Source of the DNA: an uncultured Planctomycetia bacterium
Lineage (GTDB): Bacteria > Omnitrophota > Gorgyraeia > Tantalellales > Tantalellaceae
Assembly (NCBI GenBank): GCA_964421015.1
Contig: CAYQUS010000001.1
Location: 22,726-86,725, forward strand
Direction of reading: 5' to 3'
DNA: 64,000 nt
Both the position numbers and the translations under genes were made by a program. Shown piece after piece: positions 19,232-19,542 of the stretch; the first letter of the stretch is position 1, and each line of letters starts with the position of its first letter. The notes below the pieces were generated by a model. The model was not told where the DNA came from, made no database searches, and saw nothing but the letters and a program-made list of their open reading frames with translations.

Positions 19232-19258
19232 GAAGGGCCCGCTTTAAGCGGGCCCTTC
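19232..19258 (-). terminator. intrinsic terminator hairpin downstream of the small K-rich gene
   Basis: Perfect 11-bp stem gaagggcccgc/gcgggcccttc around a 5-nt loop. On the minus strand it is followed by GCUUUUAU. Confidence 0.5.
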
Positions 19259-19277
19259 AAAACATCCGTTCTTATTT

Positions 19278-19379
19278 CTACTTTTTCTTTTTCTTGGCTA
19301 CTTTTTTCTTGGCCACTTTTTTCTTGGCAACTTTTTTCTTCGCTACCTTTTTCTTAGCTGCTTTTTTCTTCACCACCAT
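19278..19379 (-). CDS. 33-aa lysine/alanine-rich basic protein with tandem AKKKV repeats (histone-H1-tail-like); not in the ORF track
   Basis: Minus-strand ATG GTG GTG AAG AAA AAA GCA GCT ... AAG AAA AAG TAG translates to [41 protein letters not shown] lies 5 nt upstream of the ATG. There is an in-frame stop 9 codons upstream with no alternative start, and a terminator hairpin just downstream. Confidence 0.55.
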   Translation of the reverse strand: [33 protein letters not shown]

Positions 19380-19433
19380 TTTGCTCCCCCCTTTGTTGTT
19401 TTAAAATTTTTGTTCGTGACTCATTTTGTTTTA

Positions 19434-19461
19434 AATATACATTATTTTTTTTTATTTGCAA
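19434..19461 (-). promoter_or_regulatory. putative sigma70-type promoter for the small K-rich gene
   Basis: Minus strand TTGCAA, 16-nt A-rich spacer, TATATT, about 50 nt upstream of the ATG in an AT-rich intergenic region. Confidence 0.3.
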
Positions 19462-19542
19462 GGGACCGCGGCAAAAAAAATGATTTTTTCTCTCCGTCAA
19501 TTTTCGTAAACGCTACACGGGATTTTGTAACTCTGAAATATT

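Follow-up and report, generated by a model that had tools for sequence, protein, structure and literature searches.

A gene of 33 codons, encoding a peptide that is mostly a lysine repeat, lies on the minus strand of a stretch of 64,000 nucleotides (nt) from an uncultured Planctomycetia bacterium that the GTDB places in the Omnitrophota (assembly GCA_964421015.1, contig CAYQUS010000001.1, positions 22,726 to 86,725; the whole stretch is called the window below). Its open reading frame (ORF; 19278..19379, minus strand, 33 codons plus TAG), recognized from the ORF listing, the repeat and the orthologs, sits between a PilZ gene and a tRNA-Met gene, exactly as an earlier note on this DNA had claimed. 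The small gene is monocistronic, with a dedicated promoter, Shine-Dalgarno (SD) sequence and terminator. Comparison with related loci shows that the gene is genuine and that purifying selection acts on its protein, and the ORF is very probably translated. We give an even chance to the reading that its product is a cytoplasmic polycation and non-specific polyanion binder, which would neutralize and compact DNA and would probably have RNA as a second target.

The lysine frame is intact and conserved

The peptide is built of an eight-residue N-terminal part, (KKK-VA)x4 and a final KKKKK. It thus contains an array of consecutive lysine-rich pentamers, KKK-V/A-A units whose other positions are alanine or valine. 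With lysine in 20 of its 33 codons (61%), it has a mass of 3.73 kDa, a pI of 11.3 and a net charge of about +19.5. The in-frame tandem repeat described by the earlier note was recovered by Tandem Repeats Finder with a period of 15 nt, 5.5 copies and a score of 124, and a degenerate coding pattern for KKK[VA]AKKK gave five matches in the ORF against none in 100 shuffles. No second domain was found beside the repeat, as the ORF is bounded by its own stop codon and by an in-frame stop eight codons upstream; this stop had been counted at the ninth codon, and the accompanying statement that no alternative start lies between holds. Since no hydrophobic run exceeds three residues, the peptide has neither a signal peptide nor a membrane segment. 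Its helical hydrophobic moment (100 degrees) is 0.08, compared with 0.35-0.56 for magainin, melittin and LL-37, which means that it is not amphipathic.

The description of the gene as unannotated was right for the ORF track of that first reading but not for public data: an identical 33-residue peptide is a called gene, without a name or a Pfam family, on nine public metagenome contigs. These contigs are about 98% identical to the window and display a single silent change inside the ORF, GCC to GCG. The agreement of independent assemblies on the 33-residue ORF makes the repeat number reproducible and not an assembly artefact.

Relatives of the PilZ neighbour were too few for synteny; the gene for phosphofructokinase (PFK) was used as the anchor, and 80 loci were scanned for lysine-rich ORFs. 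This comparison with relatives, which the earlier note had proposed, revealed a conserved syntenic ORF whose repeat number varies in frame. The eight syntenic orthologs, at loci whose PFK is 70-85% identical to that of the window, encode 29, 31, 34, 37, 37, 55, 58 and 72 residues, and all of their ORFs are intact. The N-terminus MVVKKK occurs in seven of the eight and a run of four to five lysines precedes the stop codon in all, the N-terminal MVV and this C-terminal run being the only conserved parts of the peptide besides the repeat. The repeat units are pentamers (KKKVA), hexamers (KKKKVA/PA, locus L134) or heptamers (KKKKKAA/VV, L133), and the period accordingly shifts from 15 to 18 to 21 nt among orthologs, always in multiples of three. 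Repeat number, as read from these alignments, evolves freely while the frame is kept.

The substitution pattern points in the same direction. A gap-free alignment of 31 codons between the window and L131 has 15 substitutions, of which 15/15 are silent third-position changes; the chance that 15 random substitutions would all fall on third positions is about 7e-8. In the non-lysine codons of ten Omnitrophota genes, the entropy at codon positions 1, 2 and 3 is 0.42, 1.09 and 1.80 bits, respectively. On the sense strand, the lysine frame is the only frame open in every ortholog, the other two being interrupted by stops in the window and most orthologs, with one staying open in L134, L141 and L143.

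That no protein is made from this strand, the region being a noncoding A-rich repeat or an antisense ORF being the real gene, is hardly credible. An antisense ORF of 36 residues, rich in phenylalanine and leucine (MATFFLATFFL..., 19294..19404, plus strand), is indeed open opposite the poly-lysine, and two antisense poly-Phe/Leu frames are open in all orthologs, but these frames are a mechanical mirror of the poly-lysine and would be expected in any case. They have no conserved ATG or SD sequence, and several of the changes that are silent in the lysine frame alter leucine or phenylalanine there; the antisense peptide was rejected on this ground. The start codon, SD sequence, promoter and terminator are all oriented for the lysine frame and conserved, and the codon-position entropy has a period of three. 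The earlier reading of the repeat as coding and not noncoding is therefore borne out by the silent substitutions, the intact orthologs and the conserved expression signals.

Promoter, leader and terminator

A consensus scan (9/12 matches) located a promoter block of the sigma-70 type, C-TTGCAA and TATATT followed by T, at 19433..19462 on the minus strand. The -35 element TTGCAA (19461..19456, minus strand) and the -10 element TATATT (19439..19434, minus strand) are separated by an A-rich spacer of 16 nt ending in TAATG, the arrangement that had been predicted (19461..19434, minus strand). When ten Omnitrophota upstream regions were aligned, C-TTGCAA and TnATGTATAKTT were invariant and the flanks could not be aligned. 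The combination TTGCAA-N14-16-GTATAKTT precedes the gene in 16/16 loci that carry it, and no further copy exists in the 210 loci or the 64-kb window. The predicted promoter block is thus conserved and gene-specific. At L008 (GCA_007135805.1), a locus found through its PilZ relative, the conserved block CCTTGCAAnTAnAAAAAnnTAATGTATAnTTAAAACAAAAT is followed by AAAAAGGGGA and then by the contig end, so that the assembly breaks exactly at the SD sequence of the ortholog (L008 6100-6179).

The 5' leader (19380..19427, minus strand) is A/U-rich, with a putative start point about 7 nt past the -10 element, and folding predicts essentially no structure in it. In all orthologs, about 55-75 nt separate the -10 element from the ATG, and conservation of the leader is limited to its ends. 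The SD sequence GGGGGGAG (19391..19384, minus strand), read from the sequence, lies 4 nt (CAAA) ahead of the ATG; the strong SD of the earlier note is therefore present, with a spacing of four and not five nucleotides. Every ortholog has an SD of the GGAGG/GGGGAG type 4-8 nt before the ATG. No Rfam family was found in the leader or the ORF.

Scans and folds both recovered the expected terminator hairpin with its U-rich run. This intrinsic terminator (19222..19259, minus strand) consists of the arms GAAGGGCCCGC / GCGGGCCCTTC, a short loop of the UUAAA type and a GCUUUUAU tail, and begins 18 nt past the stop codon. The terminator scan placed the stem at 19259..19231 (minus strand) with CTTTTAT next to it; RNAfold predicted a stem of 12 bp, and the 75-nt stretch past the stop folds at -30.7 kcal/mol. 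All ten of the Omnitrophota genes have a GC hairpin and a U-run within 75 nt past the stop (-20.7 to -35.5 kcal/mol). As the hairpin sequence varies by locus, the structure of the terminator is kept and its sequence is not. When the whole predicted transcript was folded, the terminator was the sole stable element, and no alternative (antiterminator) pairing was predicted.

The discriminator of the small gene is AT-rich (TTAAAAC), whereas that of the adjoining tRNA-Met promoter is GC-rich (GCGCGCT). Stringent control in E. coli is the basis for reading AT-rich against GC-rich discriminators, and by this analogy the contrast suggests that the small gene is not co-regulated with stable RNA; it and tRNA-Met may be regulated differently.

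Lysine codons are arranged against long A-runs

Analysis of the lysine runs revealed a codon pattern of AAG-AAA-AAR. The first lysine of a run is AAG in 70 cases and AAA in 4, the second AAG in 14 and AAA in 60, and the third AAG in 33 and AAA in 41. Not one AAA-AAA-AAA triplet occurs among 262 lysine codons in the ten Omnitrophota genes. The longest A-run is 6 nt (8 nt in two of the ten genes), and in-frame A_AAA_AAR heptamers number five in total over the ten genes. By comparison, AAG makes up 46% of lysine codons in the long ORFs of the window and only 34% of first lysines in their KK runs. The binomial probability of the AAG-first bias, about 2e-19, is overstated, since repeats and orthologs are not independent. 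The wobble positions of the neighbouring valine and alanine codons are nearly randomized, which argues that the lysine codon pattern is held by selection.

According to Koutmou et al., consecutive AAA codons cause ribosomes to slide, and selection acts against runs of at least three AAA (PMC4363877). The lysine codons of the small gene look as if they were arranged to break long A-runs and not to exploit them. The earlier note had described A-runs of up to seven nucleotides and had proposed that they make expression of the gene unusual through slippage. Neither part survives: the longest run in the ORF is six, AAG comes first in 70/74 runs and AAA triplets are absent. In a gene in which lysine makes up 60% of the codons, this AAG-first, never-three-AAA pattern is a clean natural case of selection against sliding on poly(A).

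Genomic neighbourhood

The PilZ gene upstream of the small gene (Pfam 42.4 bits) encodes a protein identical to that of a Candidatus Omnitrophota metagenome-assembled genome (MAG). Two genes upstream lies a PCC/PPC (DUF296) domain gene (19918-20475, minus strand, Pfam 73.1 bits), and the PFK gene is about 1 kb upstream. In plants, the PCC/PPC domain is fused to AT-hook DNA-binding motifs. Downstream, tRNA-Met (19151..19075, minus strand) is followed by tRNA-Val, a CT398-like zinc-ribbon gene, RNase H and RNase P RNA. Both tRNA genes have near-consensus promoters with TG before the -10 element, at 19165-19194 (minus strand, 10/12 matches) for tRNA-Met and at 18987-19015 (minus strand) for tRNA-Val.

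All eight syntenic orthologs (8/8) lie between PFK-(PCC)-(PilZ) and tRNA-Met-tRNA-Val, with other ORFs between the small gene and the tRNAs in L133, L139, L141 and L143. A further Omnitrophota MAG (L121) carries a 33-residue version with equal architecture in a different neighbourhood without a tRNA. Because of this copy, the link to tRNA-Met is local synteny only, and a functional linkage to tRNA-Met was rejected. A functional linkage to the PCC gene was also rejected, this gene being missing in L134, L135, L139, L141 and L206.

The small gene is present in 8/15 loci with a PFK identity of at least 70% and at least 2 kb of downstream sequence, and it was not found near PFK in any of the more distant PFK loci. 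At L136 (7190-7760; PFK 73% identical), the PCC gene leads straight to the tRNA-Met promoter, with neither PilZ nor the small gene between them; the small gene is dispensable at that site or has moved elsewhere in that genome.

Stand-alone mini-genes in other phyla

A coding-motif scan of species-representative genomes returned at least 120 stretches from many phyla. Among the matches listed, at least 36 are complete stand-alone ORFs of 17-59 residues, most of them consisting almost entirely of methionine and K/A/V/T/P units, and stand-alone versions of 17-60 residues occur in at least ten phyla. An SD-like site precedes 78% of these tiny ORFs and 17% of small control ORFs at the same loci, and a hairpin with a T-run follows 47% and 6%, respectively. 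An 18-residue version is found in Reyranella and other Alphaproteobacteria, and further versions in Planctomycetota, Verrucomicrobiota, Bacteroidota, Nitrospirota, Elusimicrobiota, Campylobacterota, Patescibacteria and one Nanoarchaeota archaeon. Leptospira interrogans ATCC 43642 has a stand-alone ORF of 25 residues with the SD GGAGGA and a downstream hairpin (L055 5261-5338, NZ_FTNA01000006.1), and another Leptospira (L047) has a 29-residue version. L. interrogans is a cultivable pathogen and tractable for experiments.

A 21-residue ORF is shared by nine gammaproteobacterial species genomes (L017, L027, L038, L053, L094, L095, L099, L110 and L124); an example lies at L053 7400-7580, and L049 and L107 go with this group. 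The leader GTATATACTCGGnCCCCGGACTAACCCGAnAACGGAGTTTC and the terminator are almost invariant in this group, in which ten variable codons differ only synonymously and one switches between alanine and valine. About 0.8-1.5 kb upstream, L053, L049 and L107 carry a gene for 6S RNA. The last of these contigs is labelled Ca. Planktophila lacus and shares the leader of the group, so it may be mis-binned.

Family and similarity searches bring back very little of this. A HMMER all-against-library search gave three hits, all of them long unrelated proteins, and the 72-residue ortholog as query gave seven weak matches, several of which look like small genes of this kind called from a wrong start. When 11 such peptides were looked up by exact match in a clustered protein collection, none was found, a result that is uninformative since the 33-residue gene is called elsewhere. 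No family of Pfam, NCBIfam or Rfam covers the mini-genes, and a full-text search of the searchable literature for these peptide strings found no paper. Public calls of similar genes (P0130, P0131, P0133 and P0134) often carry long spurious N-terminal extensions, P0133 reading through the SD as ...KGGGKVAVKKK; such extensions make database entries misstate the true size of these genes.

Of the 120 motif stretches listed, at least 16 are no more than about 100 nt away from a true contig end (L014, L018, L022, L027, L032, L034, L038, L044, L059, L064, L084, L087, L091, L110, L112 and L113), and L008 is a further case. Assemblies thus tend to break at lysine-repeat genes, which are probably under-represented in MAGs. 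Lysine-dense proteins are also under-detected after trypsin digestion, according to the authors of the AlgP study (PMC9239181). Shortness, low-complexity masking, the composition correction of HMMER, assembly breaks and trypsin, which would reduce the peptides to tiny fragments, would together explain why the mini-genes have been overlooked.

It is possible, though we would put it forward only tentatively, that these ORFs form a widespread and essentially undescribed 'micro-H1' or bacterial protamine-like class of 17-72 residues, made of methionine and (A/V)KKK units, equipped with their own signals and acting as a major cellular polycation. Such peptides would compact DNA or shield RNA, above all in cells that are ultra-small or predatory. 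The dozens of comparable monocistronic mini-genes across phyla point to a systematic blind spot in genome annotation. The gene of the window is of moderate interest alone, and of higher interest if the cross-phylum class proves abundant and functional.

Proposed role of the peptide and competing explanations

A 33-residue polycation of about +20 without a folded domain would be expected to stay in the cytoplasm, where lysine-phosphate contacts would lead to non-specific binding of polyanions. The main target would probably be chromosomal DNA, neutralized and compacted in very small cells, with RNA as a likely second target. Omnitrophota are mostly ultra-small cells, for which predatory or parasitic lifestyles have been proposed (PMC10066038). 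The free length variation from 29 to 72 residues argues against a defined binding pocket or a fixed structural slot and for multivalent electrostatic binding. We infer a high abundance, an intracellular location, nucleic-acid binding and a nucleoid role.

The company kept by the module in larger proteins is consistent with this proposal. Among the matches listed, KKK[VA]A also occurs in H1-like proteins of 60-350 residues. It is fused to topoisomerase I at the C-terminus (TopA; L068 4659-7394, minus strand) and to a SWIB domain protein at the N-terminus (L058 2140-2625), and a K/A-rich module forms the C-terminal tail of ribosomal protein THX in a 61-residue ORF of a Flavobacteriales MAG (L057; TIGR04560, 33.2 bits against a cutoff of 26). 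The fusions to TopA, SWIB and THX indicate that the module has been repeatedly recruited to nucleic-acid-binding proteins. A further fusion, to the N-terminus of phosphofructokinase (L092 1-668, minus strand, Pfam PFK 87.6 bits), is curious, as the stand-alone gene of the window also lies about 1 kb from a PFK gene.

Several points weigh against a nucleoid role. For a polycation, RNA, polyphosphate and membranes would be targets as good as DNA, and while the TopA and SWIB fusions suggest DNA, the THX fusion suggests ribosomes just as strongly. The likeness to HC2 lies in composition only, with scores of 10-16 bits where the cutoff is 40. Across the loci, neither an operon partner nor a nucleoid-related neighbour is conserved. 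The gene is missing near PFK in 7/15 of the close relatives defined above, which makes it dispensable or mobile within the genome.

If the peptide reaches the abundance that its signals suggest, it would rank among the main determinants of the charge balance of nucleoid or RNA in a phylum of ultra-small uncultured bacteria. It would also be the smallest known lysine-repeat 'H1-like' protein, a bare DNA/RNA-binding module with nothing attached.

The strongest competitor, which we consider rather unlikely, is that the peptide is mainly associated with RNA or the ribosome, as a counter-ion or an rRNA binder like bTHX, bS22, bL36 or eL41. The K/A-rich tail of a genuine THX protein (L057) speaks for it, as does the housekeeping and stable-RNA neighbourhood with its tRNAs and RNase P RNA. 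In addition, Hc2 binds RNA with higher affinity than Hc1 does and represses translation (PMC2848022). However, a span of 29-72 residues among close relatives is unlike ribosomal proteins that fit a fixed pocket, the peptide has no match in NCBIfam or the PDB, and its gene lies outside any ribosomal-protein operon. The AT-rich discriminator, set against the GC-rich one of the adjoining tRNA promoter, and the missing tRNA linkage in L121 also argue against this explanation.

Binding to polyphosphate granules, which the peptide would organize or tether in the manner of AlgP and PhaF, is improbable. AlgP, an H1-like K/A/P repeat protein, is found on granules, and the spacing of the granules depends on its repeat domain (PMC9239181). 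AlgP and PhaF carry a folded N-terminal domain besides their repeats, however, which the peptide does not, and no polyphosphate genes are linked to it at the loci, so that the case would be one of analogy only.

It is highly improbable that the peptide is exported to act on prey or host as a cationic effector, in the role of an antimicrobial or cell-penetrating polylysine. The proposal that Omnitrophota are predators or parasites (PMC10066038) would fit, and many of the matches listed, which are no unbiased census, come from Bdellovibrionota, Micavibrio, Patescibacteria and Nanoarchaeota. Against this, the peptide has neither a signal peptide nor a hydrophobic segment, and its neighbours are PilZ and tRNA genes, with no adjacent genes for export, immunity or processing. 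A hydrophobic moment of 0.08 is not that of an amphipathic peptide, and an identity as an amphipathic antimicrobial peptide or bacteriocin was rejected on this value.

The weakest functional alternative, that translation itself is the function and a lysine-rich leader peptide senses Lys-tRNA to control the terminator and read-through into the tRNA genes, draws on the 20/33 lysine codons, the strong terminator 18 nt past the stop and the downstream tRNA-Met and tRNA-Val in 8/8 syntenic loci, but is extremely unlikely and was rejected as a lysine-sensing attenuator, as the transcript fold has no antiterminator pairing, the tRNA genes own a better promoter (10/12 matches), no conserved downstream operon shares one transcription unit with the gene (intervening ORFs in L133, L139, L141 and L143, no tRNA in L121) and leader peptides do not vary two-fold in length.

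Comparison with known families and systems

The closest resemblance of the proposed nucleoid peptide is to chlamydial Hc2 (HctB) and to BpH1 of Bordetella and Burkholderia. All have lysine-rich pentamers with alanine, valine, threonine or proline and an evenly spaced charge, and in all of them the repeat number varies among relatives while the reading frame is kept. Omnitrophota have been placed among the PVC bacteria, to which the chlamydiae belong. In Hc2, the lysine-rich pentamers are consecutive, their number differs between strains with the frame kept, and the protein binds both DNA and RNA (PMC2848022). The differences are in size and density: Hc2 has 165-237 residues with conserved non-repeat flanks and 36-residue elements, whereas the orthologs described here have 29-72 residues and consist of the repeat only, and Hc2 has two basic residues per pentamer compared with three to five lysines per unit here.

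The scores against known families remain low. The window peptide reaches 10.2 bits (E=0.8) against Pfam HC2 (PF07382) and the orthologs 12.2-16.2, below the gathering score of 40. In NCBIfam, 0 families are matched by the peptide, and the only PDB match is a low-complexity one to SigA (E=3.2). On these scores the peptide is not to be filed in Pfam HC2, and with sequence of such low complexity convergence is at least as likely as homology.

The C-terminal tail of histone H1, AlgP, PhaF and DdbA are likewise Lys/Ala-rich, low-complexity modules that bind polyanions. DNA binding and association with polyphosphate granules have been described for the AlgP repeats (PMC9239181), and DdbA has an H1-like DNA-binding domain (PMC3643593). 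In AlgP, PhaF and DdbA, however, the tails are proline-rich (KPAA) and attached to folded or functional domains, whereas the peptide of the window is domain-free and almost proline-free, with a higher charge density of about 0.6 per residue.

Two groups of very small basic proteins offer a further comparison. The small cell variant of Coxiella burnetii contains small basic DNA-binding peptides and a condensed nucleoid (PMC4766238). ScvA and Hq1 resemble the present peptide in being very small, basic and tied to the condensed nucleoid of a cell form that is small and resistant. ScvA differs in being rich in arginine and glutamine, without a tandem repeat. The tiny ribosomal proteins bTHX, bS22, bL36 and eL41 share a size of 25-40 residues and extreme basicity, and a THX with a K/A-rich tail exists (L057); they have a fixed length and a specific non-repetitive sequence, unlike the length-variable repeat found here.

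By analogy with these systems, it is plausible that the peptide works like the Hc2, BpH1 and H1-tail proteins, and it would represent the minimal stand-alone form of the lysine-rich pentamer arrays of Hc2 and BpH1 and of the histone H1 C-terminal tail. The gene would then be a minimal stand-alone variant, not seen before, of the known lysine-repeat nucleoid proteins.

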